From an uncultured Chloroflexia bacterium (GTDB taxonomy: Bacteria; Chloroflexota; Limnocylindria; Limnocylindrales; CSP1-4), in contig CAVSWB010000002.1 of NCBI GenBank assembly GCA_963731635.1, forward strand, positions 418,465-482,464: 64,000 nucleotides of DNA, read 5' to 3'. Below, in pieces: positions 32,112-61,686 of this stretch (within the stretch, counting starts at the first letter, position 1; the number at the start of each line of letters is the position of its first letter). Both the position numbers and the translations under genes were made by a program. Below the pieces are notes generated by a model. It saw only the letters and a program-made list of their open reading frames with translations, was not told the DNA's origin and did no database searches.

Positions 32112-32197
32112 GGAGAGGTGGCAGAGCGGTCTATTGCGGCGGTCTTGAAAACCGCTGGACGAGAGTCCCGTGAGTTCGAATCTCACCCTCTCCGCCA
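32112..32197 (+). tRNA. tRNA-Ser (anticodon TGA)
   Basis: Acceptor GGAGAGG/CCTCTCC plus discriminator G and CCA. Anticodon stem-loop GCGGT-CTTGAAA-ACCGC with TGA centred. Long variable arm TGGACGAGAGTCCCG, T-arm GAGTTCGAATCTCAC. Class II tRNA length. Confidence 0.85.
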
Positions 32198-32210
32198 AGA
32201 TTGCCCTCGT

Positions 32211-33524
32211 GAAATGGCCCGTCTGGTGCATCGAGCCAGGTCAACGACAGAACACTGGCAGCTTCATGGCAGCTTCGCGAGTACAGTACGGAGCAAGAGC
32301 GAAGGTGCCAGGGTCGGACCGGAAGCCTTCACCGGCGCTCCTGTATCGGAGCAACGCACGGTGGACCAGGAGACCAAACGGCCGAGGCGGTCGGCCGGCG
32401 AAGGGGCCATCTACGAAACCGCGGATGGCCGGCTCCGCGGATCCGTTCTGGTTGACCTCCCAGACGGTCGCCAGAAGCGCGTCTATGTCAGCGGCCGAAC
32501 GCGAGCTGACGTCGTGCGGAAGCTCGACGCGAAGCGCAAGGAAAGCGCTGCCGGCGCGGTGACCGGCGAGACGCTCGGCGAGTATCTCGCCCGCTGGATC
32601 GTCGCCTGCAAGCCGCGTCTTCGGCCTGCGACGCACACCGAATACGCCCGCCACGTCGCCCAATACTGGGCCGCACTGGCCAGGACGCCACTGACACGCC
32701 TTCGGCCGCTTGATGTCGAGCAGAGGCTTGGACAGCTGCTCGAGCGCGGCCTCTCGCCTCAGACCGTCCGGCACGCCCGCTCAACGCTGCGGCGGGCGCT
32801 GAACGACGCAATCCGCGAGGGCATTCTGAACCGCAACGCTGCGGCGCTGGCGCGGCCGCCACGAGTCGCCGGCCGGGAAATGCGGGCGCTCTCCCCATCG
32901 GAGGCTGGCCGTCTCCTCTCGGGGACGGCTGAAGATCCTGGGGGGCCACTCTACGCCGTCGCTCTCGGTACGGGCTGCCGCCTCGGCGAGCTGCTCGGCC
33001 TCTCATGGGACGACATGGCCGACGACGGTGCCTCGATCGTCATCCGACGTTCGCTCGCCGCGGTAGACAACATCGACCCTGAGACCGGCAAGCGACACCG
33101 AACGTGGAGGCTGGCCGAGCCCAAGACGGCCAAGAGCCGACGGACCGTCATGCTCCCGACGATCGCGACTGAGGCCCTGAGGCGTCAGAAGGCCCGCCAG
33201 GCGGCCGCCAGACTTGCGGCCGGTGCAGCGTGGCAGGACCGGCACAACCTCATCTTCACCGACGCGTTGGGCCGCCCCGCGCGCCCGGACAATGTCTCGG
33301 GATACTTCCGCGCGGCGGTCGATAGGCTCGGCCTGCCACACGTTCGCTTCCACGATCTCAGGCATTCCGCGGCGACCCTCATGCTGTCCCAGGGCGTGCC
33401 GCTCAAGGTCGTGAGCGAGACCCTGGGTCATAGCTCGATCGCTATCACTGCCGACGTGTACCAGCACGTCACCCCGGATCTCCGGCGCGAGGCCGCCGAA
33501 GCGATGGACCGGGCCCTGAAGTGA
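32211..33524 (+). CDS. int: Tyrosine-type site-specific integrase
   Basis: C-terminal catalytic domain with R...HDLRHSAATLM...LGHSSIAITADVYQHV (R-H-R-Y tetrad) and an N-terminal SAM-like domain. Directly 3' of tRNA-Ser. Start set at the first ATG after the tRNA. Confidence 0.85.
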   Translation, partial: EMARLVHRARSTTEHWQLHGSFASTVRSKSEGARVGPEAFTGAPVSEQRTVDQETKRPRRSAGEGAIYETADGRLRGSVLVDLPDGRQKRVYVSGRTRADVVRKLDAKRKESAAGAVTGETLGEYLARWIVACKPRLRPATHTEYARHVAQYWAALARTPLTRLRPLDVEQRLGQLLERGLSPQTVRHARSTLRRALNDAIREGILNRNAAALARPPRVAGREMRALSPSEAGRLLSGTAEDPGGPLYAVALGTGCRLGELLGLSWDDMADDGASIVIRRSLAAVDNIDPETGKRHRTWRLAEPKTAKSRRTVMLPTIATEALRRQKARQAAARLAAGAAWQDRHNLIFTDALGRPARPDNVSGYFRAAVDRLGLPHVRFHDLRHSAATLMLSQGVPLKVVSETLGHSSIAITADVYQHVTPDLRREAAEAMDRALK

Positions 33525-35305: not shown

Positions 35306-35315
35306 CACCCTTGCC

Positions 35316-37864: not shown

Positions 37865-37942
37865 CGATCGCACGAGGATATCTATGATCTGAGGGCGGGC
37901 GGCCACTAGGTCGGCCCGCCTTCTCATGACCGTGCACCGACT

Positions 37943-38929: not shown

Positions 38930-39841
38930 ATGAGTTTCTCAGTTGATGGAACCCTGGCCTACCCGAGACATGGAGGCCGATGCAGGTGGTCCGTCTTTGG
39001 TGCCCTGGTCGTCGCGTGCGCGATAGCCGTTCTCGCCGCGTCGCCAGCTTTCGCAGCCGATCCGAATGTCACAGTCCAATCGACGAGCGGCTCACCAGGA
39101 ATCGCGATTGATCCGAATGGTCCACGCACGCCAGCACAGCTGGGATACACCCAATCCTACGCTGACGCCAAGCACGCCCAGTTCAATGCCGCGGTCGCAG
39201 CCAAGACAACATCCGGGAACGTATCGCCGGCAGGCCAATACTATTCCGAGCAGCTGAATGGCTACGTCCAGTACCACCAGAAGACAGACCACTGGTGCCT
39301 AGCGGCCGATCTTCAGAGCCTCCTCGCGTGGAACTTTGGGACTGCCACGTACGTCGGGTCCAGCGTGCTGACGCATCAAACGACCATCGCGACAGCCATA
39401 AATACGGGCCCATATGGAGCCGACGACTATACCGCCCTTGCGTACGCAAATAGCGCGTTCAGCTATTGGGGCAAGAACTTCCGCTATGTTCCGACCTACG
39501 ACATGACGTCCGCCGCCTTTCAGAACCAGATTACAAACGAGATCGACATCTACTACGAACCCCTGTACGCCCGGGTCAACGTCAGCAGTCCCTACTACGT
39601 TTGGCATCAAACAGGCACTGCATACCACGCGACATTGAGCGTCGGATACTCAAGCAATGGTTTGACTACCATGATCGGCGATCCGTTCACCGCCAGCACG
39701 AGCGGCTGCCCGGAAGGCATCGGCTATCCAGGCTACAGCCCTAACCCTGACTATGGCTGTGTCTACTGGGGTTTCTCTACCTCTAGCTACTACAGGGCCG
39801 TGAGCGGCATGGTCAATGGCGAGGACCCGGAGTGGTTCTAG
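38930..39841 (+). CDS. Secreted protein, putative papain-like/C39-like cysteine peptidase
   Basis: Signal peptide VFGALVVACAIAVLAASPAFAADP. Candidate Cys-His dyad in DHWCLAADLQSLLAW and TAYHATLSVGY. Lower GC than surroundings. Confidence 0.45.
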   Translation: MSFSVDGTLAYPRHGGRCRWSVFGALVVACAIAVLAASPAFAADPNVTVQSTSGSPGIAIDPNGPRTPAQLGYTQSYADAKHAQFNAAVAAKTTSGNVSPAGQYYSEQLNGYVQYHQKTDHWCLAADLQSLLAWNFGTATYVGSSVLTHQTTIATAINTGPYGADDYTALAYANSAFSYWGKNFRYVPTYDMTSAAFQNQITNEIDIYYEPLYARVNVSSPYYVWHQTGTAYHATLSVGYSSNGLTTMIGDPFTASTSGCPEGIGYPGYSPNPDYGCVYWGFSTSSYYRAVSGMVNGEDPEWF

Positions 39842-39863
39842 TTCCGGGCCTGGAAGACCGCGC

Positions 39864-41096: not shown

Positions 41097-41356
41097 GCTT
41101 GGTCGGACACTGGCGTGCTGGCGGCCCCTAAGCCTGGCCGTGGACCAAGGTCGCGGCGATCGAGGCCGGCACCACAATCCGACGGCGGGAACGGCCGGCT
41201 CTCGTAGAGCCTCCAAGATGATGACCTGGCGAGCCGGACTTGGCAGCTTCGCTGGCATCTTCGCCGGCGAACAGAGGCGGACGGCGAGGCGCCAGGTCGG
41301 ATCACCTCGCGCTCAAATCGAACGCTGACGGACCCTCGCGACCGCTCTAGAGCACC

Positions 41357-41410
41357 CTTGAAAACCGCAGACCGGAAGGTCCCAGGGTTCGAATCCCTGC
41401 CTCTCCGCCA
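41357..41410 (+). repeat. att-like junction B: divergent 3' half of a tRNA-Ser (cttgaaaaccgcagaccggaaggtcccagggttcgaatccctgcctctccgcca)
   Basis: Retains the anticodon-loop 3' side, a variable arm, a T-arm and the acceptor CCTCTCCGCCA, but differs from the intact tRNA in the variable and T arms. Flanked by 'ccggtagcaa' motif repeats. Confidence 0.6.
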
Positions 41411-41544
41411 AGAATTTGAGCGTGAATAGGCCATTTGTATCGCTGAAACCGGCACATTCTGTCCGAAGCCGGTAGCAATCCGTGGTAGCAACTGAACCGC
41501 CCTGGGTCTGATGGAGGCTCCATCTCTTGGAGGATGATGGAGCA

Positions 41545-41886
41545 ATGTCAGAGAACCAAGGCAGTCACGACCACCGTCACCGTTACCCGCCAGAGCTTCG
41601 AGAGCGCGCCGTTCGGATGGTCTTCGAGACGATCGAGCAGTCCGGCGAACGCACCGGTGCCGTCACCCGAGTAGCTCGCAACCTCGGCGTCGGAACCGAG
41701 TCGCTTCGCCAGTGGGTCCGCCAGGCCGAAGTCGACAAGGGCGCTCGAGCCGGCCTCACGACCGAAGAGCGCCGGCGCATCGTCGAGCTCGAGAAGGAGA
41801 ACCGGGAGCTGCGCCGCTCCAACGAGATCCTCAAGAGCGCCGCAGCTTTCTTCGGGGCGGAGCTCGACCGCCGCTCGCAGAAGTGA
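41545..41886 (+). CDS. IS3-family transposase OrfA (HTH)
   Basis: RYPPELRERAVRMV...GAVTRVARNLGVGTESLRQWVRQ HTH and leucine-zipper-like RRIVELEKENRELRRSNEILK, typical of IS3 OrfA. Confidence 0.8.
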   Translation: MSENQGSHDHRHRYPPELRERAVRMVFETIEQSGERTGAVTRVARNLGVGTESLRQWVRQAEVDKGARAGLTTEERRRIVELEKENRELRRSNEILKSAAAFFGAELDRRSQK

Positions 41887-42767
41887 CCCGCTACATCGAT
41901 CAGAACCGTGGCTCCTATGGGGTCGAGCCGATCTGCGCTGAACTGCAGATCGCCCCCAGCTCCTACTACGCCGCTCGCAGTCGGCCCCCATCGGCGCGGG
42001 CCGTTTCTGACTCGATGCTCAAAGACGTCATCATTCGCGTTCACCGGGCCAACTTCGGGGTATACGGGGCCCGCAAGGTCTGGAAGGCCCTCCACCGCCT
42101 GGGCATGGACGCTGGCCGCGACCAGGTCGCCCGCCTGATGAAGGCCGTGGCACTGCAGGGCGTCACGCGGGAAAAGACGATCCGGACGACCAAACCCGAC
42201 GATCAGGCTTCCCGACCGGCCGACCTCGTCGAGCGCAGCTTCACCGCATCGGGGCCCAATCGGCTCTGGCTCGCTGACCTCACGTATGTCTGGACCGACG
42301 CCGGCTTCGCCTACACCGCCTTCATCACCGATGCCTTCTCGCGACGGATCGTCGGCTGGCGGACGAGCGCGAATCTCCGGACCGATCTCGCGCTCGACGC
42401 CCTTGAGATGGCGCTCGCCTTCCGGGGAAAGGAGCTGCCCGGCCTGGTCCACCATTCCGATCGCGGAGTGCAATACCTCGCCATTCGCTACACCGAGCGC
42501 CTCGATGAGGCCAAGGCCGTCAACTCCGTCGGGAGCAAGGGCGACAGCTACGACAACGCCCTGGCCGAGTCGGTCAACGGCCTCTACAAGGCCGAGCTCA
42601 TCCGCCGGCGGAAACGCTGGCGAACGCTCGGGGAGCTCGAACTCGCGACCGCGGCGTGGGTTCACTGGTACAACATCGAGCGGCTCCACGGCACCTGCGG
42701 CGACATCCCTCCGGCCGAGTTCGAGGAGGCCTACTATCGCCAACTAGAAGAGGCGCATGCCGCCTGA
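41883..42767 (+). CDS. IS3-family transposase OrfB (DDE integrase core), expressed as OrfAB via -1 frameshift near the end of orfA
   Basis: DDE motif context: LWLADLTYVWTDAGFAYTAFITDAFSRRIVGW (D), HHSDRGVQY (D), DNALAESVNGLYKAE (E). The frame is -1 relative to orfA. The exact slip site is not resolved, so the 5' coordinate is approximate. Confidence 0.75.
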   Translation: MTRYIDQNRGSYGVEPICAELQIAPSSYYAARSRPPSARAVSDSMLKDVIIRVHRANFGVYGARKVWKALHRLGMDAGRDQVARLMKAVALQGVTREKTIRTTKPDDQASRPADLVERSFTASGPNRLWLADLTYVWTDAGFAYTAFITDAFSRRIVGWRTSANLRTDLALDALEMALAFRGKELPGLVHHSDRGVQYLAIRYTERLDEAKAVNSVGSKGDSYDNALAESVNGLYKAELIRRRKRWRTLGELELATAAWVHWYNIERLHGTCGDIPPAEFEEAYYRQLEEAHAA

Positions 42768-43110
42768 TTCCAATTCCGGGAGTCTCCACGATTCCCAGGG
42801 CGGTTCAAACGGCGCACACAGCCGAACAGCGCCGAACAGAGCGCAAGGTCCTCAGACCGGACTCCATTGCCAGCATGCACCTGTAGTCTCGACGTCCGCG
42901 ATCCTTGTACCGAACAACCTCAGCGCGGCGGTGAGAAGGGGCGACCGACAGCGAAGAACTCGGAGAGAGCGCGATCTCGTCGGCTGAGGTGGTCGACTTC
43001 GGCGCTAGCCGCCTCCAGTGCGCTCTATGATCACGTCAAGTGGCCCCACCGTGATCACCAGAGTTGGCCCCACCCCGACCGGTGTGATGGCCTTCTGACA
43101 GGTCTCTAGA

Positions 43111-43893
43111 TCAGGTCGCTGGCGATCCCTCCTTTCGCTTTGTCTGGCTGGTCCGGAGCCGATACGAGGCCGATCCGGTCTCGAGAATGTGGGCCCGGAA
43201 TGTGAGCCGGTCGACGACCGCGGCCGCCAGGCGCGGGTCGGTGAAGGTCTGGCCCCACTCGCTGAATGGGGCGTTGGACGCGACCGCGATCGAGGCTCGC
43301 TCGTCGCGTTCGGTCAGAACCTGGAAGAGCAACTCGGCGCCCCGACGATCCAGATGGAGGTAGCCGAGTTCGTCGAGACAGAGCAGGTCCAGGCGCCCAT
43401 AACGGCCGATGACTCTGGAGAGTTCGCGCTCGTCCTCGGCTTCCACGAGCTCGTTGACGAGGGCCGCCGCAGTCACGTAGCGAACCCGGCGACCCTGCTC
43501 GCAGGCGGCGATGCCAAGACCGATCAGCAGGTGCGTCTTGCCGGTCCCGGAATTGCCCAGCAGCACGACCGGCTCGCCCTCACCGATCCAGTTGCAGGTT
43601 GCGAGAGCCGCCAGAGTCCCCGGAGCGATCGTTGGCGTGGCGCCCAGATCGAACTCGGAGAGGCGCTTGATGCGAGGGAAGCGGGCTTCGGCGATCCGGC
43701 GCTCCCGTCGCCGAGACTCCCTGTCCTCGACTTCGGCCGCGAGCAGTTCGGCCAGATACGCCCGGTGGGTGACCCGATCGCGGACGGCCGCAGCGGCAAG
43801 CTCGTCGGCCTGCGCGCGGACGGTCGGCAGATGCAGGACGCGGGTGGCAACGTCGATCCCGACCGAGGCCGCTTCTTCGGTCAGACCTCTCAT
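43111..43893 (-). CDS. istB: IS21-family helper ATPase IstB
   Basis: Walker A LLGNSGTGKTHL and Walker B LLCLDELGY in an AAA+ DnaC-like fold. Confidence 0.85.
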   Translation of the reverse strand: MRGLTEEAASVGIDVATRVLHLPTVRAQADELAAAAVRDRVTHRAYLAELLAAEVEDRESRRRERRIAEARFPRIKRLSEFDLGATPTIAPGTLAALATCNWIGEGEPVVLLGNSGTGKTHLLIGLGIAACEQGRRVRYVTAAALVNELVEAEDERELSRVIGRYGRLDLLCLDELGYLHLDRRGAELLFQVLTERDERASIAVASNAPFSEWGQTFTDPRLAAAVVDRLTFRAHILETGSASYRLRTSQTKRKEGSPAT

Positions 43894-45467
43894 CGGGTGG
43901 TCCCCCCAAGGAGGCCGTCATAGACGGTCAGGGCCGGAGCCGACCGGTCATAACGTGCCAGATGGGTGGCCGAAGGAACGGTCGAGCCGGTCGGGCCGCG
44001 GTGCTCGGCGATCCGTCTGGCCTCGATGGCCACGAGGGCAGCATCTGCCGAGCCCATGGAGTTGACGGCTTCGAGAGCGGCGTGGACCGCCGGGAATGGC
44101 ATCCGTCGGTGGAGCAGGAGCACCTCGATAAGCGCCCGCGTGCCGCCCGCGTCGCCGAACTTGCGTCGCGCCCTGGCCCAAAACGCCTCATGTGCGGCCG
44201 TGAGCACGCCCCGCTCACGGGCCTGATGGGTCGCGAGGGCACCGGGCATCGCGCCTGGCTTGCGGGACAGGATCTCCAGATAGTGGTCGAGCACCAGGGT
44301 CTGGCTGCCCCGGATCGTGCTGCGCTCGTGGGAGGCGACGACTGTGCCGCCATCGACGACCTCGATGCGGGTGCCACCGATCCGAGCAGATAGCTGCCTG
44401 CCGGCGTATCTGGCGGGCACCGAATAGAAGCATTGGCGGACGCAGACCCGGGCCTTGGAGTCGACCCGGACGGTCGCGATCCGGGCCGCATCGAAGGGAG
44501 CATCAGGCAGCGGTTGCAATGCCGCCCGATCGGCCTCGCCCATCGTCCCGACGGTCAGACGGCGGGTGCCGATGTGGCGGGCGAGGTCGCGCCGGTCCGC
44601 CTCTTCGAGGCGGCGGTTGAGATCGGCGAGGCTCTTGACCTTGGGCACAGGCACGAAGAAGTGGCGGCGCTGGCGGCCGACCTCGCCCTCGATGCCGCCC
44701 TTCTCGTGGGCACCTTCCTCGCCCGGGATGCAGAAGAAGGAGTCGAAGCCATAGTGGGAGCGCAGGGCGATGAAACGCTCGGTCTCGGTTCGGTCTCGTC
44801 CACGCAGGACCCGGGCCACAAGGGAGCGGGCGTTGTCGTATCGGATCCGGGCCGGCACCCCGCCGATGCGGGCAAAGGCGGTGACGTGGCCCTCGAGGAA
44901 CGCCTCCTGGCCCTCCGATCCGAAGGCGACGTGGATAGCGACGCCCGAATGGGACAGGCGCAGCTCGAAGACCGAGACCGAGGTGCGCTCGCCGGCCATG
45001 ATCACGTCGGCGAGACCGAAGTCGACCTGGGCTTCCGAGCCAGCCAGATGATGAGCCACGATCGCAACGTCGCGGTGCTCGAGGTGCAGCTCGCGGCGGC
45101 ACTCGCGGACATAGCGGCGGACGGTGCTCTCGGCCACATCGGCGCCGTGCTCATCGACCAGACGCTCCCAGATCCGCCGGGCCGTGTGGCGCTGCTTTCG
45201 CGGTGCGTCGGCATCGGCGACGAGCCAGGCCCGGATGGTGGCCGCATGCGGTCCGACCGCCGGTGCGACCCGCGACTCGACGGGCTTGCGTGGCGGCGGG
45301 ACCGCGCAGGCGAGGGCCTGGCGGACCGCTCGCCGGTGCACCCCATGACGGCGCGCCAACTCGCGGATCGACACCCCTTCCTCCCGGTGGTCTCGGCGGA
45401 TACGCTCGAACTGCTCCACCCTCGACAACTCCTTCCTCCGTCGCTCGTGATGGCCTCGCAAGACCAA
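43890..45467 (-). CDS. istA: IS21-family transposase IstA
   Basis: N-terminal HTH (IRRDHREEGVSIRELARRHGVHRRAVRQAL) and a DDE core (QVDFGLA..., ...YDNARSLV...) typical of IstA. Length 525 aa. Confidence 0.85.
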   Translation of the reverse strand: MVLRGHHERRRKELSRVEQFERIRRDHREEGVSIRELARRHGVHRRAVRQALACAVPPPRKPVESRVAPAVGPHAATIRAWLVADADAPRKQRHTARRIWERLVDEHGADVAESTVRRYVRECRRELHLEHRDVAIVAHHLAGSEAQVDFGLADVIMAGERTSVSVFELRLSHSGVAIHVAFGSEGQEAFLEGHVTAFARIGGVPARIRYDNARSLVARVLRGRDRTETERFIALRSHYGFDSFFCIPGEEGAHEKGGIEGEVGRQRRHFFVPVPKVKSLADLNRRLEEADRRDLARHIGTRRLTVGTMGEADRAALQPLPDAPFDAARIATVRVDSKARVCVRQCFYSVPARYAGRQLSARIGGTRIEVVDGGTVVASHERSTIRGSQTLVLDHYLEILSRKPGAMPGALATHQARERGVLTAAHEAFWARARRKFGDAGGTRALIEVLLLHRRMPFPAVHAALEAVNSMGSADAALVAIEARRIAEHRGPTGSTVPSATHLARYDRSAPALTVYDGLLGGTTR

Positions 45468-45572
45468 TCGAGCCTACGGAATTGAGGTCGGGGGTGGGGC
45501 CAACTCTGATGATCGAACCGGCCGAAAGTGGGGCCGGTTTAGGTCTCGTATGCAACAGCAGACGTAGAGTGT

Positions 45573-46370
45573 ATGATCCAGCATATGAGCGACCTGCGGG
45601 ACTGGATCCTCGGACTGCCCGGACATGGCCAGTACACGTTCTCGACGCGGGATGCCTGCGACCAGCAACCTGCCATCAGCGCCGCGAGCACGAACGCTGC
45701 GCTCGCGCGGGCGGAGGCTGCGGGCCTGATCGTCACGCCCGTCCGCGGTTTCCACGTCGTAGTTCCCCTAGAGGATCGGGGAGTTGGCGCACCGTCCTGG
45801 CGCATCTTCCTCGACCCGATGATGACGCACCTCAGTCTCACGTACTACGTTGGCCTTTTGACCGCGGCCGCCCAACATGGCGCTTCTCCTCAGGCGGGCC
45901 AGATTACGCAGGTGGTTGTGCCACGGCAGAGACGGCCCATTGATGTAGGCCGAGGCCGGATCGAGTTCGTGGTCTGCCAAGACACGGCGAGCGCGCCGAT
46001 CGAGTTCGTAAACGCGCCGTCGGGCCGCTACCGCATGGCGACGCCGGAACTCACTGCCCTTGACCTCGTCCGCTATAGCTCCCGTGCCGGGGGGTGGGGG
46101 AACGTCATGAGCGTCCTGCGCGACCTCGCACCCGCGCTTCGCCCGAGTCACTTTCGGCCTGTACTTGCGATGGAGCCCGCGGCAGCAGACATCGCGCGGC
46201 TCGGCTATCTCCTCGAGCAGCTTGGCGCGGCCGACGCAGCGGCCCCGCTCCGCCGTTGGATCGAGGTGCGCCCGGAAAGCTGGGTGCCGCTCGTGCCGGG
46301 GTCCGGCCGAGCCGGAGTCCGCGATCCGCGTTGGCGGATCGTCGTCAACGAATCCATCGAGGCCGATTGA
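45573..46370 (+). CDS. AbiEi-family antitoxin/transcriptional regulator (type IV toxin-antitoxin/abortive infection)
   Basis: N-terminal wHTH-like region, and gene immediately upstream of, and overlapping (TGATG), a DUF1814 nucleotidyltransferase. 265 aa is a typical AbiEi size. Confidence 0.65.
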   Translation: MIQHMSDLRDWILGLPGHGQYTFSTRDACDQQPAISAASTNAALARAEAAGLIVTPVRGFHVVVPLEDRGVGAPSWRIFLDPMMTHLSLTYYVGLLTAAAQHGASPQAGQITQVVVPRQRRPIDVGRGRIEFVVCQDTASAPIEFVNAPSGRYRMATPELTALDLVRYSSRAGGWGNVMSVLRDLAPALRPSHFRPVLAMEPAAADIARLGYLLEQLGAADAAAPLRRWIEVRPESWVPLVPGSGRAGVRDPRWRIVVNESIEAD

Positions 46371-47152
46371 TGCTGCCGCGCGGGGAGATCCTGGCATGGC
46401 GGGCGGACCATGCACCGTGGGCTGACGAAGACGACGTCGAGCAGGACCTGCTCCTGACCCGCGCCCTATGCGACATTTTTGCTGACCCGTTTCTCCATGA
46501 GCGTCTGGCGTTCCGGGGCGGGACGGCCCTTCACAAGCTGCACCTTCCTCCGGCGGCGCGCTACTCGGAGGACCTCGACTTCGTGCAACGCAAGCCAGAA
46601 CCGATCGGGCCGACGCTTGATCGGCTGCGTTCTGTCCTGGGTTGGCTTGGGCGGGGCCGCTCGGAGATCGGCGAGCACCCGAAACTGAGCTTCCAGTTCG
46701 CTACCGAGGCGACTCGACAGACCCGGCGTCTCAAGATCGAAATCAACACCCACGAGCATTTCGGGAGCGTCCTCGAGTTGCCGTTCACGGTGACCTCGCG
46801 CCCGCTGACAGCAAAGGTCGCGATCCCGACCTACTCGCTCAACGAACTCCTCGCGACCAAGCTCCGGGCTCTGTACCAGCGGCGCAAGGGGCGCGACTTG
46901 TTCGATCTCTGGTATGCGAACGAGAGAGGGAAGATCGCGCCCCAAGAGATCGTTCGGCTATTCGGCGTCTACTTCGCAGGCTCCGGGCTCGCGGTCCCGA
47001 GCCGCGCGAGCTTCGAGCGCAATCTCGCGGCCAAGGGGTCTTCTGGCGTGTTCGCCGAGGTCGGCCCGCTGCTCCGACCGGGGATCGCTTGGGACCCTGC
47101 GACCGCTCTCGAGTGGCTCAGTGCCGAGTTACTGCAGTACCTCTACAGCTGA
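46370..47152 (+). CDS. AbiEii/AbiGii-family nucleotidyltransferase toxin (DUF1814)
   Basis: NTase motif FRGGTALHKLHLPPAARYSEDLDF (hG[GS]...D.D) and conserved K/R-rich C-terminal region. Translationally coupled to AbiEi. Confidence 0.75.
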   Translation: MLPRGEILAWRADHAPWADEDDVEQDLLLTRALCDIFADPFLHERLAFRGGTALHKLHLPPAARYSEDLDFVQRKPEPIGPTLDRLRSVLGWLGRGRSEIGEHPKLSFQFATEATRQTRRLKIEINTHEHFGSVLELPFTVTSRPLTAKVAIPTYSLNELLATKLRALYQRRKGRDLFDLWYANERGKIAPQEIVRLFGVYFAGSGLAVPSRASFERNLAAKGSSGVFAEVGPLLRPGIAWDPATALEWLSAELLQYLYS

Positions 47153-47173
47153 TGAGCGGGCGCGGCGGTTGCC

Positions 47174-49564
47174 ATGAGTGAGCGCGATGCCGTGAACCCC
47201 GACGAGCTGCGCCTTGAGCTGGAGGGTCTCCGGGCCGAGAACCGGCGCCTGCGGTCGCTGCTCGGGTTGGATGTCCCCGAAAGGGCGACGTCCGCACCGC
47301 CGCCCGCGCCCGACTGGGAGCCAACGCTCTTCCGTGATCCGTTGGCGTCAACGGGTCGGGTGCCCGTGGACAACCGTTCCTCACCGGAGTCCAAGGTTGC
47401 GCTCTTCCGGTCGTTGTTCGCGGGGCGCGGTGACGTCTACGCCGCGAGGTGGGAGAACGAGCGCAGCGGGAAGTCGGGATGGAGCCCTGTGGTCGTCGGT
47501 GGTCCGGCCAACGCTCGGCGGCAAGATCGTGAGTACGTGCCGCTGGACGACGGGATCATCGCTGCGCACCTGACGGGTCGGGTGCACGTCGGCCTGTACC
47601 CGCTGTTGCGCGACGACAGATGCCGGCTTCTCGTGTGCGACTTCGACGGCCCGACCTGGCCCCTCGATGTAGGTGCGTACGTCGACGCGGCGAAGGTCGC
47701 TGGAGTCCCTGTGGCGCTGGAGCGCTCGCGATCGGGCGAGGGCGCCCACGTCTGGATGTTCTTCGGCGGTCCGGTCGTCGCATCGGCCGCGCGGCGGGTC
47801 GGTGCCCACTTGCTGCGCGAAGCGATGACTGTGCGAGCCGAGATCGATCTCGCAAGCTACGACCGGCTCTTCCCGGCCCAGGACTTCATGCCGAATGGAT
47901 CGTTCGGCAACCTGATCGCGCTGCCGCTCCAGGGGGCTTGTCGGCGCCGAGGCACTACCGTCTTCCTGGACCCGTCGACACTTCGGCCATTTGACGACCA
48001 GTGGGCCTTCCTTTCCTTGCTCGGTCGCAGCTCTCCAGAAGCGATCGAGTCAATGGCCGAGTCGGTGCGCCAGGTGGCCGCCGGCCCTCTGGAGTCGACC
48101 TATCGGCCACCGCGTGGGCGTGAAATGCCGAAGGCACCGACTACCGTTATGGCCGATGCCGGGGCGATGCTCTCGATCGATCGGATCGGCCTCCCGCCGG
48201 CTCTGCTCGCGGGGCTCAAGCATCTGGCCTCGCTCCACAACCCCGAGTACTACGAGAAGGAGCGGCTGCGCCTCTCAACCTGGAAGACGCCGCGCTTCCT
48301 TCGCTGCTACGGCGAGTCTTTCGACCGACTGCTGCTACCGCGCGGCCTGCGCGAAGCGGCCGAAGCGATCGTCGCCGAGGCAGGCAGCCGTCTCGTCGTG
48401 CGGGAACAACACCCGGACCTGGCCCGGATCGAGGTTCAGCTGCAGGCGACGCTGCCGGCGGGTCAGCAGGATGCACTCGATGCGCTTTGTCGCCACGATC
48501 TGGGCGTGCTCGTCGCGCCGCCCGGTGCCGGCAAGACCGTGCTGGCGTGCGCGGTCATCGCTCATCGCGCGGTGCCCACGCTCGTGATCGTCGATCGCCA
48601 ACCGCTCCTTGAGCAGTGGCGCGAGCGCCTCGTGACTCACCTTGGCATGAACCGAAAGCAGATCGGCGTCGTCGGGGCGGGCCGACGCCGACCACACGGC
48701 GTCGTCGACATCGCGATGGTGCAGTCGCTGGCACGGCGCGACGATGTCACAGGGTTGACGGCGGGGTACGGGTTCGTGGTCGTCGACGAGTGTCACCACG
48801 TGCCGGCCACCACGTTCGAGCGGGTGGTTCGTGAAATCGGAGCGCCCGCGTGGCTCGGGCTGACGGCCACACCCTACCGGCGCGATGGGCTCGAAGGGCT
48901 GATCACGATGTACTGCGGTCCCATCCGGCACCGCATGGGCGAACGCCAGACCGAGGACTCGGACTTCGTCCGCGCTCTCGTTGTCCATCCGACCGACCAC
49001 GTGGCCGCGCCGGCCGAGGCCGACACCCCGGCCGGAATGTCGATCCAATCGGTCTTTCGGGGCCTCGTCGAGGATGAGGACCGGACGCGGCTGATCTGCG
49101 CGGACGTCGCCACGGCTGTTCGTGCGGGCCGCAATTGCCTCCTCCTGTCGCAGTGGACCGAGCACATCGCATCGCTCGGAGCCTTGCTCGCGGAGCTTGG
49201 AATAGAGGCTGACGTCCTGCAGGGCGGCGTTGGCAAGAAGGCGCGGCGCGTCATCACCGACCGACTTGCCGGGGCTCGATCCGGGGACGGCGTCGTGCTG
49301 CTAGCCACCGGCAGCTTCCTTGGCGAGGGCTTCGACTGCCCGCCGCTTGACACGCTGTTTCTTGCGTTCCCCATCGCGTTCAGGGGACGGTTGGTCCAGT
49401 ACGCCGGTCGCGTCCTGCGACCGATCGACGGCAAGGCGCGGGTCGAGGTCCATGACTACGTGGACGCCCGCGTGCCCGTCCTTGCCCGCATGCATGCCAA
49501 GCGCCTCACGGCCTACGCGAGCCTCGGCTTCGATGTGGGCGAGAGACGGTTGGCACGGTGGTGA
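47174..49564 (+). CDS. Fusion protein: N-terminal archaeo-eukaryotic primase/polymerase (PrimPol) domain + C-terminal superfamily-2 DEAD/DEAH (ResIII/Helicase_C) helicase
   Basis: PrimPol-like N-domain: HLTGRVHVGLYPL, catalytic LLVCDFDGP (DxD) and SGEGAHVWMFF (sxH). Helicase: Walker A APPGAGKT, DExH VVVDECHH, motif III TATP, Helicase_C LLATGSFLGEGFDCP...QYAGRVLR. 796 aa. Confidence 0.6.
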   Translation: MSERDAVNPDELRLELEGLRAENRRLRSLLGLDVPERATSAPPPAPDWEPTLFRDPLASTGRVPVDNRSSPESKVALFRSLFAGRGDVYAARWENERSGKSGWSPVVVGGPANARRQDREYVPLDDGIIAAHLTGRVHVGLYPLLRDDRCRLLVCDFDGPTWPLDVGAYVDAAKVAGVPVALERSRSGEGAHVWMFFGGPVVASAARRVGAHLLREAMTVRAEIDLASYDRLFPAQDFMPNGSFGNLIALPLQGACRRRGTTVFLDPSTLRPFDDQWAFLSLLGRSSPEAIESMAESVRQVAAGPLESTYRPPRGREMPKAPTTVMADAGAMLSIDRIGLPPALLAGLKHLASLHNPEYYEKERLRLSTWKTPRFLRCYGESFDRLLLPRGLREAAEAIVAEAGSRLVVREQHPDLARIEVQLQATLPAGQQDALDALCRHDLGVLVAPPGAGKTVLACAVIAHRAVPTLVIVDRQPLLEQWRERLVTHLGMNRKQIGVVGAGRRRPHGVVDIAMVQSLARRDDVTGLTAGYGFVVVDECHHVPATTFERVVREIGAPAWLGLTATPYRRDGLEGLITMYCGPIRHRMGERQTEDSDFVRALVVHPTDHVAAPAEADTPAGMSIQSVFRGLVEDEDRTRLICADVATAVRAGRNCLLLSQWTEHIASLGALLAELGIEADVLQGGVGKKARRVITDRLAGARSGDGVVLLATGSFLGEGFDCPPLDTLFLAFPIAFRGRLVQYAGRVLRPIDGKARVEVHDYVDARVPVLARMHAKRLTAYASLGFDVGERRLARW

Positions 49565-49776
49565 CGGACCTCGTGGAGGCGACTGATCCAGCCACTCTTC
49601 GGCGGATAGAAGAGGCAGGGCTGACGCCTGCTTCCAGAGGCAATTCCGGCCTCCCTACCGGTAGCAACAGCCGGTAGCAACAGGGGCGAACATCGGCGAA
49701 TTCGAGGCCCGGGAATCGGGCCCATTCCCTCGTGAGATCAGCCATCGGCGAACCCCCGCGAACCCCCTGACCCAGA

Positions 49777-49830
49777 CTTGAAAACCGTAGAGCGCAAGCT
49801 CCCTGGGTTCGAATCCCAGCCTCTCCGCCA
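49777..49830 (+). repeat. att-like junction C: second divergent tRNA-Ser 3' half (cttgaaaaccgtagagcgcaagctccctgggttcgaatcccagcctctccgcca)
   Basis: Same architecture as junction B, with its own variable and T arms. Embedded in a ~330-bp repeat shared with 58440-58860. Confidence 0.6.
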
Positions 49831-50002
49831 ACATTGTGAGCGTGAATTGGCCATTTTCGTGGCCTAAACGGGCCCTTTGTGTCCAAAGCCGGTAGCAATC
49901 GTCGGTAGCAACGGCGCACACAGCCGAACAACGCCGAACAGAACGCAGCGGTCCTCGAGACCGAGCCATTGCCAGCACCGGTGGTCTTTCTAAGCCTCGT
50001 CG

Positions 50003-50715: not shown

Positions 50716-51087
50716 GGCTCCTGTCCTTGTCAGACTTGAGTGGCTGGCGCGGCCCGGTCGGTCGACTGTTCGGAGGTCGGGACTAACCGGAGGATGGGGA
50801 ACGTCCGGTTGGTCGCACGGGCGTACCGCTCGTATGCGGGGTTGCGACGTAGGATCCGCTGCCACCAGTCGGCCGGGCCTAAGGAGGGTCTGTTTGACCT
50901 CAGGTAGTCGAGCCCCTCAGTGAGCGCTGCAGGCCGGCTACCTCAGTCTCTATTAGTGGGGGCACGGTAGCAACGGCGGACAGAGCCGAACAACGCCGAA
51001 CAGAACGCAGCGGTCCTGTAGACCGCGCACGGCCCGTCGACGGGCGAGTAGGGGAGGAGCCGCTGACGAGATCTGAACTTCCGACTG

Positions 51088-57058: not shown

Positions 57059-57826
57059 ATGAGCGAGAAGTCCGAAGGCGCCAAACTGGTTGAGGTGGTG
57101 CACCTGGCGTTCCTCCAGGTTCTGCCTTCCTATATGCCGGTTGGCGACTACGTTGTAAAGGGCGGAGCGAACCTGCGTCTGTGGTTTGACAGTCGCAGAC
57201 GGTCCCAGGACATCGATCTTGACTACCTGCGGGCAGAACGTTTCTACCTCGTAGAGGATCAGATCGACAAGACCCTGGCTGCCCGCGCGTTCCGCGAGAT
57301 CCTCCGCTCCGGAGGCGTGTCGATCTCTGACCCAACCAAGCCGAAGCAGACCTCGACGACCCGCCGATGGAAGTTCGTCGCGAGCGGTCCAGCGGGCCTG
57401 TTGAACACGAAGATCGAATTCTCGTCGAGGGTTGGAACGGTGGATCCCGAACATGCCTTCCAGCAGGCTCGTGCCGACGTAGGCGCCGGCCTCGGCCTCC
57501 GGGTCGTAAAGGCTGAGCACTACCTAGCACCGGCCGCGATCCGCCAGAAGATCGGCGCGCTTGCAGGCCGCTCCGAGACCGAACCCAGAGACGTGTTCGA
57601 CCTTGACCTTCTTTTGGGCGCATACCCGAACGCTCTGACGCCGGGGCACGTGGACCCAGCCTTGATCGACAAGGCTGTCGCCGCGGCTATGGGCATCGCC
57701 TACGACTCCTACCATGACCTCGTGGTTGACTTCCTCGAAGAGGAATTCGTGCCCATCTACGGCCGGCCGGACGTCTGGACCAGCATGGTGCTCGAGGTCG
57801 TCGAGCGCCTTGAGGCTTTGAAGTGA
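57059..57826 (+). CDS. AbiEii-like nucleotidyltransferase toxin (DUF1814 family)
   Basis: NTase motif VKGGANLRLWFDSRRRSQDIDLDY and conserved C-terminal basic region. Followed by an overlapping AbiEi-like gene. Confidence 0.65.
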   Translation: MSEKSEGAKLVEVVHLAFLQVLPSYMPVGDYVVKGGANLRLWFDSRRRSQDIDLDYLRAERFYLVEDQIDKTLAARAFREILRSGGVSISDPTKPKQTSTTRRWKFVASGPAGLLNTKIEFSSRVGTVDPEHAFQQARADVGAGLGLRVVKAEHYLAPAAIRQKIGALAGRSETEPRDVFDLDLLLGAYPNALTPGHVDPALIDKAVAAAMGIAYDSYHDLVVDFLEEEFVPIYGRPDVWTSMVLEVVERLEALK

Positions 57827-58434
57827 GCTTGCTCGAAGCCGAGACCATCCTCGACCGGATCGGGCCGGTCATCGAGACGCGAGAGGCGGCCGCGGCCTTG
57901 TTGCGCAGCGTTCCTTCGACCAGCCGTACTCTGGGCGCCCTCGCCGAGGCCGGCCATGCCCACAGGATTCGCCACGGCCTGTGGTCCATCGGACCGACGC
58001 CGCCGGATCCTTACCAGATCGTAGGCGATCTGACCCGGCCGCATCCTTCATACGTGTCCTTCCAGTCCGCGCTCAACTTCCATGGGATGATCGATCAGAT
58101 CCCGCGCGACACCACGGTAGCCTCGCTCGATCGCGCCCGCCGGATCACGACGACGATCGGCACCTACGCGGTCCACCACATCCCAGGCGAACTCTTCGGC
58201 GGATGGACCAAGGGGACGCGGGGACGCGTAGCGACGCCCGAGAAGGCCATCTTTGACCTCGCGTACATCAGCGCGGCGCGAGGCGCGCCGCCTCGTCGCG
58301 TACCCGAGATCGATCTGCCAGCGGGCTTCGATCGCGCCGCGATCGACGAGTGGATCGCCAAAATAGCCGACCCGCGCATCGCCACCATGACCAACAGGGG
58401 TGTGCGACAGATTCTGGCGAGGGCCGTTCGCTAG
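57823..58434 (+). CDS. AbiEi-like antitoxin (wHTH), located downstream of its cognate toxin
   Basis: N-terminal region LLRSVPSTSRTLGALAEAGHAHRIRHGLWSIG resembles the AbiEi N-terminal wHTH (..RV.RGVY..). C-terminal domain about 120 aa. 4-bp overlap with the toxin gene. Confidence 0.55.
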   Translation: MSLLEAETILDRIGPVIETREAAAALLRSVPSTSRTLGALAEAGHAHRIRHGLWSIGPTPPDPYQIVGDLTRPHPSYVSFQSALNFHGMIDQIPRDTTVASLDRARRITTTIGTYAVHHIPGELFGGWTKGTRGRVATPEKAIFDLAYISAARGAPPRRVPEIDLPAGFDRAAIDEWIAKIADPRIATMTNRGVRQILARAVR

Positions 58435-58595
58435 GGGTAGTTGCGGGATGGCCGTGGTCTCGAATCCTGGGTCGTCTACCGGTAGCAACAGCCGGTGGCA
58501 ACAGAGCCGAACACCGGCGGATTCGGGGCCCTAGAATCGCCCAATTCCCTCGTGAATCGGTCATCCACGGACCCCCGCGAACGCGCTGAGTGAGA

Positions 58596-58654
58596 CTTGA
58601 AAACCGCTGGACGAGAGTCCCGTGAGTTCGAATCTCACCCTCTCCGCCAAGATT
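58596..58654 (+). repeat. Direct repeat (attR-like): exact copy of the 3' 59 nt of tRNA-Ser(TGA)
   Basis: Identical to 32144-32202. Flanked on both sides by the ccggtagcaac-motif repeat family. Confidence 0.8.
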
Positions 58655-59160
58655 TTGAGCGTGGATCGGCCGTTGCGGTCGCCGAAAACCGGCCCGACTT
58701 GTCCGAAGCCGGTAGCAACAGCCGGTAGCAACAGCCTACGCGGCCGAGCGACGCCGAACGGAACGCAGCGGTTCCAGGACCGAAGGCGCTGCTCCTCCAC
58801 ACAGCCCGTCGACGGGCGATTAGGGGAGTAGCCGCTGACTAGATCTGGGCATTCGAGCTCGAGGTCTGGCTCGGCGAACTGGACCGGCATTCGGTGCGCG
58901 TCGGGCTGTATGCCGAGGGCGTTGACGGCGGTGTCCCGGTGCGGCAGGAGATGAAGCGCGGTCGACGGCAGGCGGGCACGGCTGGCAGCTTCGTCTACGG
59001 CGCGGTCGTAGGAGCGGACCGCTCGGTTTCGGACTACACGCCCCGAGTGATTCCGCACCGCGCCGGAGTTTCGATACCACTGGAAGACTCGCGCATCCGC
59101 TGGCAGCGTTGATCGGCCGAGAAGTATTGCCCGGGACTCGGGTTCCTGTGGAAGCTATAG

Positions 59161-61681: not shown

Positions 61682-61686
61682 CTGGG

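Follow-up and report, generated by a model that had tools for sequence, protein, structure and literature searches.

Why should the 3' half of a single tRNA gene, embedded in about 330 bp of related sequence, recur at several places along one stretch of bacterial DNA? This question is raised by a repeat family in 64,000 nucleotides from an uncultured Chloroflexia bacterium; this whole stretch is referred to here as the window. We conclude that the units are very probably the att junctions of an accretion array at a tRNA-Ser(TGA) gene (32112-32197), and we put the probability of the reading as a whole, i.e., stacked integrative elements, hybrid junctions and arm-type repeats, at about 0.8. Structures of this kind are already well known; the phylum in which this one occurs, Chloroflexota, is little studied. 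Loci used for comparison are designated by an L and a number.

The Repeat Units and Their tRNA Cores

The tRNA-Ser(TGA) at 32112..32197 (+ strand; ARAGORN; Rfam tRNA, 56.9 bits) is the sole intact tRNA in the window, where it would be the integration target and the attL of the whole array. Its 5' half occurs once. Copies of its 3' half are present at 41357-41410 (core A), 49777-49830 (core B) and 58596-58649 (core C), all on the + strand and each inside a conserved unit of about 300 bp. They span the tRNA from the anticodon loop CTTGAAAACC, with which all three begin, to its end in CTCCGCCA, and they are 79-100% identical to the resident segment 32144-32197 (+ strand), the core segment common to all of the junctions. 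Core C matches it at 54 of 54 positions. The three cores are distinct tRNA-Ser 3' half variants (79-89% identity) with compensatory changes in the stems.

Units B (49656-49955) and C (58477-58777) are 79% identical over 306 aligned columns (MAFFT), the P arms and the cores being 82% and the P' arms 76% identical. The initial annotation had aligned 49640-49990 with 58440-58860; the roughly 300 bp of alignment and the order of blocks that it listed are reproduced, except that the conserved unit begins at 49656 and not at 49640. Its statement that the family occupies at least four places also holds, with three full cores and one truncated copy. The latter, copy D (50964..51084, + strand), contains the second repeat, the distal P' arm and a tail; the P arm, the core and the first repeat are deleted. 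Copy D and the distal P' arm of B share 91% identity. The tail, which is also found at an attL in L027, matches 58800-58856 with 86% identity, in agreement with the earlier description of a partial copy at 50940-51060 that has no tRNA half and a tail in common with 58800-58850.

Copy A is indeed split by an IS3-family element (41493-42807; Pfam rve/HTH_21), as had been proposed, but it extends further than was thought: the tRNA half belongs to it, together with about 28 nt upstream. Terminal inverted repeats TGAACCGCCCTGGG bound the IS3-family element, AAC is duplicated as its 3-bp target, and taking the element out restores the P' arm. An Rfam search of the whole window detected only the tRNA and an ALIL frameshift pseudoknot inside the IS3-family element, and no known structured RNA in the units.

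Two kinds of short direct repeats flank the cores, and both had been recognized from the start. The first is the ccggtagcaac repeat: a scan of the window for CCGGTAGCAAC with at most one mismatch gave 10 matches, all on the + strand and all within the units, where 0.68 +/- 0.91 were expected and 0 of 100 shuffles got to 10. Two of these CCGGTAGCAAC-type repeats are present in each P arm and two in each P' arm. The second, repeat family D2, consists of gccgaaca/cgccgaaca repeats (GCCGAACA/GGCGAACA type), which a repeat search located on both sides of the core.

A short (about 300 bp), non-coding, multi-copy sequence that holds a tRNA fragment could also be a tRNA-derived miniature mobile repeat, MITE- or SINE-like, that spread by transposition, and this alternative had been offered originally. 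However, an inverted-repeat search showed that terminal inverted repeats are absent from both full units, and no target-site duplications flank the units. Furthermore, all four copies in the window belong to a single array, which lies downstream of the tRNA gene that they match, and every well-preserved copy in other genomes is joined to a tRNA core. Complete attL/attR pairs bracket gene cassettes in those genomes, and the tRNA part is always the 3' half from the anticodon loop, the classical integrase identity segment. Consequently, we give the transposition model almost no credence.

Architecture of the Array

Read as att junctions, the units divide the array into the tRNA gene, element 1 (32198-41410), junction A, cassette alpha, junction B, a remnant with the truncated junction D, cassette beta, junction C and, finally, a truncated P' arm fused to an orphan gene fragment. 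Junctions A and B bound cassette alpha, and junction C marks the end of cassette beta.

Element 1 begins with a P' arm and the int leader (32198..32360, + strand; sequence and motif scan), in which TGGCAGCTTC forms a tandem pair at 32256-32265 and 32267-32276. These are followed by the tyrosine integrase Int1 (32361..33524, + strand; Pfam Phage_integrase, 4.6e-25), which has 1105 homologues, the best of them 96-98% identical, and, on the - strand, by an Xis-like HTH_17 protein (33543-33893; Pfam, 5.2e-9) and RepSA, a pSAM2-type replication initiator (33890-35635; Pfam, 2.9e-133). At the far end, the P arm (41239..41356, + strand) carries the pair TGGCAGCTTC (41241-41250) and TGGCATCTTC (41253-41262). 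This arm aligns positionally with the GGTAGCAAC P arms and is 59% identical to the P arm of B (shuffles, 51.8 +/- 2.3). Thus the element has its own arm repeats, at 32256-32276 and 41241-41262, in positions homologous to the GGTAGCAAC arm repeats. Across the window TGGCAGCTTC is not significantly enriched (9 matches versus 4.1 expected), and so only the placement of tandem pairs at both ends of element 1 is meaningful. A TGGCAGCTTC pair is also present upstream of int in L066 and L069.

The integrase, the Xis-like protein and RepSA make up the first part of the gene set of an actinomycete integrative and conjugative element (AICE). An FtsK/SpoIIIE-like (TraB) translocase is absent from all of the ORFs between 35.2 and 41.1 kb, and Nudix and Spd genes were not detected in element 1 (Pfam, NCBIfam and PHROGs in each case); the unnamed ORFs of element 1 and the cassettes gave nothing useful with NCBIfam and PHROGs. 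Because no FtsK/TraB was found, element 1 is not called an AICE here but only a pSAM2-like integrative replicative element.

Junction A contains core A, which is 79% identical to the resident half and belongs to a variant that is also part of intact tRNAs in L014, L019 and L032, where alpha cassettes have such a tRNA at their attL. The P' arm of cassette alpha follows in two pieces (41411-41492 and 42811-42880, + strand; repeats and alignment) around the IS3-family element, with repeats CCGGTAGCAAT (41469-41479) and GGTAGCAAC (41484-41492). Like the IS3-family element, an IS21-family element is a later insertion in this cassette (43028..45547, - strand, ends approximate; Pfam; inverted repeats 43053-43076 and 45491-45514). 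It encodes IstA (43890-45467) and IstB (43111-43893), and its flanks are contiguous in L014. The cargo proper (45573..49564, + strand; Pfam, PADLOC) consists of AbiEi, AbiEii and a PrimPol(AEP)-helicase protein, and the same trio occurs between the same arms in L060, L075 and L079. The P arm of cassette alpha (49656..49776, + strand; conservation profile) has CCGGTAGCAAC at 49658-49668 and 49671-49681, the last repeat ending 95 nt before core B, which is a second variant of the tRNA-Ser 3' half.

The P' arm of the element after junction B (49831..49978, + strand; motif scan and conservation profile) contains CCGGTAGCAAT (49889-49899), TCGGTAGCAAC (49902-49912) and then GCCGAACAACGCCGAACAGAACGC. 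Beyond junction D, cassette beta encodes membrane proteins, a LuxR/MalT regulator and, at its right end, a second AbiE pair (AbiEii-like, 57059-57826; AbiEi-like, 57823-58434; + strand; Pfam, PADLOC). This pair is found beside P arms, with 92-99% amino acid identity, in L004, L022, L051, L053, L056, L059 and L076. The P arm of cassette beta (58477..58595, + strand) has CCGGTAGCAAC (58479-58489) and CCGGTGGCAAC (58492-58502). A further element, truncated, begins on the other side of core C with its P' arm (58650..58856, + strand), which shares its tail with D, has CCGGTAGCAAC at 58709-58719 and 58722-58732, and abuts an orphan 86-codon gene fragment (58852-59109).

These patterns can be explained if the elements entered one after another at the segment of tRNA-Ser(TGA) from the anticodon loop to the 3' end. 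Strand exchange would presumably take place within the invariant anticodon-loop segment CTTGAAAACCGC, so that each newcomer brings in a 3' half of its own for the tRNA, and the previous half is moved to the right end of the newcomer. The conservation profile shows CTTGAAAACCG to be invariant, and in L002 and L044 the homology stops directly after it. Each junction would then have, from left to right, the P arm of one element, a displaced 3' half of the tRNA as its core and the P' arm of the next element, and it therefore resembles a whole attP. The units had originally been taken as repeats of one attP, a view that has to be replaced by one of hybrid junctions. For example, junction A joins a TGGCAGCTTC P arm to a GGTAGCAAC P' arm, two different arm families, a hybrid of just the sort that accretion predicts, presumably because element 1 came last, into a tRNA that already carried cassette alpha. 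One feature runs counter to the simple model: the rightmost unit, C, bears a P' arm where the chromosomal flank is expected, so that an extra deletion or truncation event is needed.

A different history would be that one junction was copied by unequal homologous recombination, with no separate integrations. The 91% identity between D and the distal P' arm of B, only 1 kb apart, suits such a segmental duplication, and gene conversion among the arms is likely. However, the differences among the cores, with their compensatory stem changes, do not suit it; each core variant is the working 3' half of intact tRNAs elsewhere, and the segments between the junctions are mutually unrelated and are found separately in other genomes. 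Duplication of a single junction is, therefore, very improbable, and successive integration is the reading used below.

The Short Repeats as Candidate Arm-Type Sites

The CCGGTAGCAAC-type repeats are probably arm-type sites of an integrase. Arranged in pairs, two repeats per arm and at a fixed distance from the core, they would be bound by the N-terminal domain of a heterobivalent lambda-like tyrosine integrase. The position and number of the repeats and their covariation with the integrase clade strongly support this candidate assignment, which comes from sequence comparison.

In the integrase-bearing relatives, a 9-10-mer identical or related to this repeat is present twice in tandem between the tRNA and int, and its sequence changes with the integrase clade, being GGCAGCTTC, GGCACCTT, GGCAGCAAC or GGTAGCAAC. 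The pair is TGGCAGCTTC in the window, L066 and L069, TTGGCACCTT in L068, GGCAGCAAC in L091 and L093 (both at tRNA-Ser TGA) and in L092, and GGTAGCAAC in L021, L094, L095 (tRNA-Leu CAA) and L096 (tRNA-Cys GCA). Moreover, the pair tracks the integrase clade across differing replication modules (RepSA versus AAA_25). One of these loci, L094, is a complete element of 6.6 kb; its P' arm has two GGTAGCAAC repeats and its P arm three, the last of which is about 95 nt before the core, the spacing in units B and C. Its repeat pairs are in both arms, at 2778 and 9127, and hence also at the end far from int.

The part of the earlier proposal that called ccggtagcaac an arm-type site of attP is thus supported by these relatives; the integrase expected to read it is not the resident one. 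Int1 is probably not the cognate integrase of the GGTAGCAAC arms, judging from the repeats of its own element. Since its arm repeats differ, binding of Int1 to ccggtagcaac would probably be negative, a result that would leave the arm-site idea intact. The cognate enzyme may instead belong to the clade seen in L021, L094, L096 and L093.

In the window, no ORF with a Pfam integrase match follows the GGTAGCAAC P' arms; a cognate integrase adjoins such an arm only in the relatives L021, L094, L095 and L096. Among the genome loci compared, an integrase of the Int1/L021 type directly follows a GGTAGCAAC P' arm only in L021 (tRNA-Leu). Otherwise, L057 has a C-terminal fragment, L024 matches over 32 N-terminal residues, and L058, which is not from Chloroflexota, has a match of 26% identity. 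At tRNA-Ser(TGA) itself, no full-length integrase was found beside a GGTAGCAAC P' arm, only truncated remnants: L059, L015 and L017 have the tRNA-Ser junction, the GGTAGCAAC pair, the int leader and a truncated region around the int start codon. The full-length tRNA-Ser-specific integrases (L091 and L093) have GGCAGCAAC, one base off GGTAGCAAC. The integrase-bearing tRNA-Ser/Cys elements of L091-L093 showed no second core or P arm, i.e., no attR, in 10 kb of flank.

One could suppose that the CCGGTAGCAAC pairs bind another protein, such as an excisionase/RDF (HTH_17), a repressor of int or a replication initiator (iterons). In the integrase-bearing relatives the pair is located just upstream of int, a plausible place for an operator, these elements do encode HTH_17 and replication proteins, and the second repeat (GCCGAACA/GGCGAACA) in both arms makes several binding proteins probable. 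However, the pairs are in both arms, including the one far from int in L094, and RDF sites are not known from more than one arm in the characterized lambda, L5 and P2-type systems. The pairs are also kept in cassettes that have no int, HTH_17 or RepSA to regulate, and the motif follows the integrase clade rather than the replication module. Binding of another protein, instead of the integrase, at these pairs is, accordingly, improbable.

Recurrence in Other Genomes

When the genome collection was scanned for the repeat pair, 65 loci were obtained, of which about 45 are from Chloroflexota MAGs. The same cassettes and arms are found again at tRNA-Ser(TGA), in MAG loci of Chloroflexota (about 45) and in metagenome contigs (19). 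The pair either precedes a tRNA 3' half by about 95 nt or follows the end of a tRNA at about 58 nt. Fifty-two tRNA-Ser(TGA) cores have full flanks: 20 are attR-type (P only), 17 attL-type (P' only), 12 are junctions with both arms and three have neither arm. Complete cassettes of minimal size are those of L060 (4.4 kb: tRNA-Ser, P', AbiEi, AbiEii, PrimPol-helicase, P, core) and L053 (2.3 kb: tRNA-Ser, the beta genes, P, core). Elsewhere, the arms are attached to Ser-TGA, Cys-GCA and Leu-CAA tRNA cores and probably to Lys and Asn cores as well. Searching a plasmid collection with the unit matched only the tRNA-Ser part, in unrelated bacteria, and thus no plasmid relative; the repeat-pair scan of IMG/VR viral contigs gave two loci, and the family is not phage-like in that collection.

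The layout with two repeats per arm is shared by other loci (28 unique P arms and 23 unique P' arms), an apparent conservation that is inflated by the fact that most of the loci were gathered by an exact search for the motif pair; as a partial control, the pair is present in 11 of the 13 P arms that were not used to pick loci. Conservation of the P arms starts 3 nt before the first repeat; that of the P' arms extends to about 130 nt beyond the tRNA. Between cassettes with 98-100% identical cargo, the P arms diverge by about 14%. Purifying selection on the arms relative to the cargo found no support, as the arms are less conserved than the adjacent cargo in close relatives. The divergence is best read as gene conversion among arm copies and not as simple vertical conservation.

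Are the Cassettes Still Mobile?

Cassettes alpha and beta lack integration and transfer genes of their own. No integrase was detected with Pfam between 42.9 and 58.4 kb, where the ORFs identified (Pfam, PADLOC) encode only IS transposases, AbiE, PrimPol-helicase, LuxR and membrane proteins. Both cassettes do have attL- and attR-type flanks, as do those of L060 and L053. They would move only if a cognate integrase acted on them in trans, whether from an element located elsewhere in the genome or from a newcomer. That they are still mobilisable seems to us a little less than an even bet. Homologues of integrases of the Int1 or L021 type are present in none of the 19 metagenome contigs that have tRNA-Ser and a GGTAGCAAC P' arm, and the cassettes may therefore be immobile relics.

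Taken further, this would mean that the units are scars of elements that lost int, with repeats that no longer bind or recombine, and that only homologous recombination and deletion between repeats still alter the array. The absence of an integrase from the cassettes, here and at about 30 other loci, is in line with such decay, and so are the truncated int starts behind the P' arms of L059, L015 and L017, the truncation of junction D, the fusion of unit C to a gene fragment and the IS3 insertion in a P' arm. The 14% P-arm divergence among cassettes that are 98-100% identical, which suggests gene conversion, can be counted on the same side. However, the same cassettes appear in different array positions and combinations across genomes, for example, singly in L060 and L053 and in stacks in the window, L051 and L075. 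In addition, both arms are complete, the repeat pairs are intact in arms outside the ascertainment, and conservation of the arms ends sharply at the outer repeat, as expected of a functional boundary. We consider complete immobility unlikely, while taking it seriously; it bears on present activity only and does not contest what the repeats are.

A bolder proposal, which we regard as speculative and would not favor at present, is that these are not decay products but a maintained system of trans-mobilised cassettes, in which Chloroflexota integrases read a shared arm code of GGYAGCAAC pairs. If so, Limnocylindria-type integrases would insert small defence cassettes into tRNA-Ser(TGA) arrays and remove them again, a way of working like that of integrons but built from full lambda-type attP arms, and the same code would be reused with Ser, Cys, Leu and possibly Lys and Asn tRNA cores.

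Implications

A puzzling repeat family can, on this reading, be explained as ordinary biology, i.e., a tRNA integration hotspot with stacked elements. Chloroflexota have almost no experimentally studied mobile elements, and the analysis provides a concrete, testable arm-site code for an uncharacterized family of their integrases. The four motif variants that accompany the clades amount to a natural experiment on the evolution of arm-binding specificity. Small AbiE and PrimPol-helicase cassettes with complete att arms and no integrase are present in dozens of soil and peat MAGs, which suggests that defence genes in these organisms travel as hitchhiking cassettes. Finally, the junction signature (P arm, tRNA half, P' arm) can be used by annotators to delimit islands in these MAGs.

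Comparison with Known Systems

In the attP sites of L5 and pSAM2 the core corresponds to the tRNA gene from the anticodon loop to the 3' end, and the cores in the window are alike. The heterobivalent attP of lambda, L5 and pSAM2 have short direct repeats, not core-like, in both arms within about 120 nt, and int adjoins the P' arm with an Xis-type HTH protein nearby; both features are seen here. The differences are the GGTAGCAAC sequence, the strict tandem-pair layout with its 12-13-bp period and the fact that the candidate sites in the window are orphaned from their integrase. Element 1 has int beside a tRNA, an HTH_17 Xis-like gene and RepSA, as do pSAM2-type AICEs (the Pfam family RepSA takes its name from pSAM2), but its host belongs to Chloroflexota and not to Actinomycetota.

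Within the same phylum, the Dehalococcoides islands at ssrA also use one small-RNA gene as a repeated target, and repeated integration leaves 3'-end direct repeats between tandem islands (PMC3146451). However, their target is tmRNA instead of tRNA-Ser, and the integrase family and the cargo are different (PMC3146451).

The tycheposons of Prochlorococcus are tyrosine-recombinase elements at tRNA genes, tRNA-Ser(TGA) included, in which successive integrations drive older elements deeper into the island, partial tRNAs and degraded elements are scattered through it, and defence genes and primase/helicase replication modules are carried as cargo (bioRxiv 10.1101/2020.12.28.424599). All of this resembles the window. 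However, tycheposons are defined by their own integrase, which the window cassettes do not have (bioRxiv 10.1101/2020.12.28.424599). The integrase and the replication proteins are also different, the latter being RepSA or an AEP fused to a ResIII helicase here, and the arms in the window are long and conserved, with explicit repeat pairs. A true integron was rejected, because the junctions are tRNA-based sites of about 300 bp with direct repeats and no attC-like palindrome; the likeness is functional only, i.e., an array of promoter-independent cassettes beside an integrase.

The integrase-less cassettes would be CIME-like derivatives. In Streptococcus thermophilus, tandem accretion of ICEs and IMEs with CIMEs is exemplified by the islands related to ICESt1/ICESt3, and CIMEs, like the cassettes, are integrase-less elements that retain attL and attR, stand in tandem with an integrase-bearing element at one target gene and form arrays with decayed remnants and composite structures (PMC5704250). 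The window differs in its Chloroflexota host and in its target, the anticodon loop to 3' end of tRNA-Ser(TGA). It also differs in that the resident integrase element and the cassettes have different families of arm repeats, which makes mobilization of the cassettes in cis by that element doubtful. Furthermore, the window cassettes are not one-off decay products but members of a recurrent, conserved AbiE and PrimPol-helicase family, putatively mobile, that is found in dozens of MAGs.

Repeat family at tRNA-Ser(TGA)

The sole intact tRNA of the window is a tRNA-Ser(TGA), located at 32112-32197 by tRNA prediction and Rfam. Its 5' half occurs once in the window, and three further places repeat its 3' half (anticodon loop CTTGAAAACC through ...CTCCGCCA): copy A (41357-41410, 79% identity to the resident half), copy B (49777-49830, 82%) and copy C (58596-58649, 100%). 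The variants have paired changes at variable-arm and T-stem positions and are therefore alternative working halves rather than decayed copies, and each variant is present in intact tRNA-Ser genes of other genomes.

SerRS is encoded at 4610-5929 in the window, and 26 kb of ABC transporter and other genes precede the tRNA-Ser(TGA) at 32112. In the relatives L027 and L093, a class-I LysRS and SerRS lie only ~1 kb upstream of this tRNA (window region compared, 165-5929). Either a rearrangement specific to the lineage or one more insertion, on the 5' side, accounts for the wide gap in the window.

The halves are the cores of a ~330-bp repeat family, with a P arm to the left and a P' arm to the right. 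Over 306 columns, units B (49656-49955) and C (58477-58777) share 79% identity, and their alignment reproduced the order of blocks described in the initial annotation. The two partial copies reported there also held up: copy A is broken by an IS3 at 41493-42807, and its normal P' arm is restored when the IS is removed, while copy D (50964-51084), which lacks the tRNA half, is a truncated P' arm. The recurrent ccggtagcaac-type motif, as CCGGTAGCAAC with at most one mismatch, has 10 matches in the window against 0.68 expected, all within the units and all on the plus strand. The three tRNA halves, the B/C alignment, copies A and D and the motif count thus establish the repeat family. The suggestion that it might instead be a MITE fails, as there are no inverted repeats, no target-site duplications and no dispersal. 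An integron identity for the array was also rejected.

Element 1 and its arms

The integrase-bearing element 1 (32198-41410) begins directly after the tRNA with three genes, a tyrosine integrase (Int1, 32361-33524) and, on the minus strand, an HTH_17 Xis-like gene (33543-33893) and a pSAM2-type RepSA (33890-35635). Its right end is junction A. Tandem pairs are present at the left end (TGGCAGCTTC twice, 32256-32276) and the right end (TGGCAGCTTC/TGGCATCTTC, 41241-41262), and when aligned they occupy the same positions as the CCGGTAGCAAC pairs of units B and C. One array in the window contains two arm-repeat families, and the motif pairs are predicted to be arm-type sites for the integrase N-terminal domain. 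This att anatomy matches that of lambda/L5/pSAM2-type heterobivalent integrases. Domain and family profile searches found no FtsK/TraB-type translocase in element 1; therefore, the AICE label was rejected and the element is considered to be a pSAM2-like integrative replicative element. Just past the 5' end of the minus-strand RepSA are two 98-nt direct repeats (35833-35930 and 36045-36142; 89% identical, 212 bp apart), which could be an origin, an iteron region or a small RNA.

We compared the DNA surrounding homologs of Int1 and of a second integrase type from locus L021, which is 46% identical to Int1 and lies downstream of a GGTAGCAAC pair. In every integrase locus compared, a tandem 9-10-mer pair is located between the tRNA end and int, and its sequence tracks the integrase clade: TGGCAGCTTC in the window, L066 and L069; TTGGCACCTT in L068; GGCAGCAAC in L091, L093 (both tRNA-Ser TGA) and L092; and GGTAGCAAC in L021, L094, L095 and L096. 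The complete 6.6-kb element L094 has three repeats in its P arm and two in its P' arm; the last P repeat lies ~95 nt before a tRNA-Leu 3' half, a spacing equal to that in units B and C. The block TCTGAGCRCGAATCGGCC is common to the window units and the P' arms of these integrase-bearing elements, so the cassette arms are homologous to the attP arms of such elements. Three loci (L059, L015 and L017) combine a tRNA-Ser junction and a GGTAGCAAC pair with the hairpin of the int leader and an int start that is truncated; integrase-bearing GGTAGCAAC elements therefore once existed at tRNA-Ser. L069 mixes GGTAGCAAC and GGCAGCAAT within one arm pair, and so, a single integrase may tolerate both variants.

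Two of these loci display other features. The L095 junction (4674-5029) has a tRNA-Leu(CAA) 3' half with three GGTAGCAAC repeats before it and two after it, and then a full-length integrase. An intact tRNA is absent from this locus, which represents a tandem junction or, alternatively, an excised circle that was assembled (a true attP). In L091 (2072-6412), Shedu (SduA) and NERD-domain genes, an extra reverse-oriented tRNA-Ser and a tandemly duplicated tRNA 3' end lie upstream of a tRNA-Ser(TGA) with an integrase-bearing element, making it another defence-rich, rearranged tRNA-Ser hotspot.

Recurrence, crossover and array history

A scan of the genome collection with the exact pattern GGTAGCAAY-N4-GGTAGCAAC identified 65 loci, ~45 of them in Chloroflexota MAGs (Limnocylindrales, 'Chloroflexia' and Stordalen fen bins). 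The pair occurs in two settings: in P arms it precedes a tRNA 3' half by ~95 nt, and in P' arms it follows a tRNA-Ser(TGA) 3' end by ~58 nt. Scanning metagenomes for a P' pair next to a tRNA-Ser end yielded 19 more contigs. Among the 52 tRNA-Ser cores with complete flanks, 20 are of the attR type (P arm only, then unrelated DNA), 17 of the attL type (P' arm only, many on an intact tRNA), 12 are junctions with both arms and three have neither. The same arm repeat accompanies tRNA-Cys(GCA), tRNA-Leu(CAA) and apparently Lys and Asn cores.

Conservation of the P arms (28 unique) increases from ~50% to >90% at 3 nt before the first repeat and stays high up to the core; the P' arms (23 unique) are conserved from the tRNA end to ~+130. 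The majority of the comparison loci were recovered via the motif itself, and arms outside the search pattern served as the control; 11 of 13 such P arms have both repeats.

CTTGAAAACCG is invariant, and homology ends directly behind it in L002 and L044, which points to strand exchange within the anticodon loop. Each incoming element would then bring a new tRNA 3' half and push the old one rightwards. At L002 (~2060) and L044 (~2710, minus strand), the P arm and the anticodon-loop segment CTTGAAAACCGC are followed by unrelated DNA replacing the rest of the tRNA half; these sites may be secondary-site integrations or deletions, and they help to map where crossover takes place. In the window itself, elements are arrayed in tandem at a single tRNA, with P arm-core-P' arm junctions. 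Junction A joins the P arm of element 1 to a tRNA-half variant and a P' arm which, in L014, make up the attL of alpha cassettes, a hybrid suggesting that element 1 arrived last, in a tRNA already occupied by cassette alpha.

Integrase-less cassettes

Cassette alpha, between junctions A and B, encodes AbiEi, AbiEii and a PrimPol(AEP)-ResIII helicase protein, and has an IS21 insertion. The D-C interval encodes a second AbiEii/AbiEi pair together with membrane proteins and a MalT/LuxR regulator. Domain searches of the ORFs from 42.9 to 58.4 kb found no integrase or recombinase gene besides IS transposases. The same arrangement recurs elsewhere. For example, L060 (4.4 kb) reads tRNA-Ser, P', AbiEi, AbiEii, PrimPol-helicase, P and core; L075 and L079 have this cassette at 95-97% amino-acid identity, genes of cassette beta (which ends at junction C) adjoin a P arm in L004, L022, L051, L053, L056, L059 and L076, and an integrase is absent from all of these. 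We infer that the cassettes depend on a trans-acting integrase and that it is not Int1.

Cassettes with 98-100% identity in the adjacent cargo have P arms that differ by ~14%, which indicates gene conversion among many arm copies; the arms seem to undergo exchange or conversion separately from their cassettes. Around 58435-58595 in the window, cargo and intergenic DNA as far as the P arm are 98-100% identical to L022 and L059, and identity falls to 83-86% within the P arm.

The IS3-family element is complete, with 14-bp terminal inverted repeats TGAACCGCCCTGGG, a 3-bp target-site duplication (AAC) and an ALIL frameshift pseudoknot (41841-41957; Rfam); it was inserted exactly behind the second arm repeat of the copy A P' arm. 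The IS21-family element (IstA/IstB; ~43028-45547, ends approximate) separates the P' arm of cassette alpha from AbiEi, and its flanking sequences are contiguous in L014.

Both junction D and the truncated element to the right of C are products of ordinary decay. Beyond unit C, the P' arm is followed by an orphan 86-codon fragment, a disrupted P-type ATPase and ABC transporter genes. The fragment (58852-59109) is fused straight onto the tail of the last P' arm and has no Pfam match; it looks like the C-terminal end of a larger enzyme, our guess being an alpha-glucan phosphorylase. L017 has a glycoside-hydrolase-like C-terminal fragment behind its truncated int start, similar to the end of the window array, and such array ends may be deletion scars. 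The ATPase (minus strand, 59161-61819), just outside the array, appears divided into two overlapping ORFs, one with the HAD C-terminal part (59161-60204) and one with the E1-E2 ATPase part (59966-61819), and is a probable frameshift or pseudogene.

Comparison with known systems

The initial annotation's main reading, integrase arm-type sites around tRNA-Ser halves, was essentially right and the finding is real, but the structure is of a known kind. Its novelty lies in the lineage of the host, an explicit arm code that covaries with integrase clades, and a recurrent family of integrase-less AbiE plus PrimPol-helicase cassettes. The finding would gain importance if these cassettes turn out to be actively trans-mobilised. 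The accretion/CIME model of streptococcal ICEs and IMEs matches the window structure (PMC5704250), and the array resembles both tycheposon islands with partial tRNAs (bioRxiv 10.1101/2020.12.28.424599) and the tandem ssrA islands of Dehalococcoides (PMC3146451).
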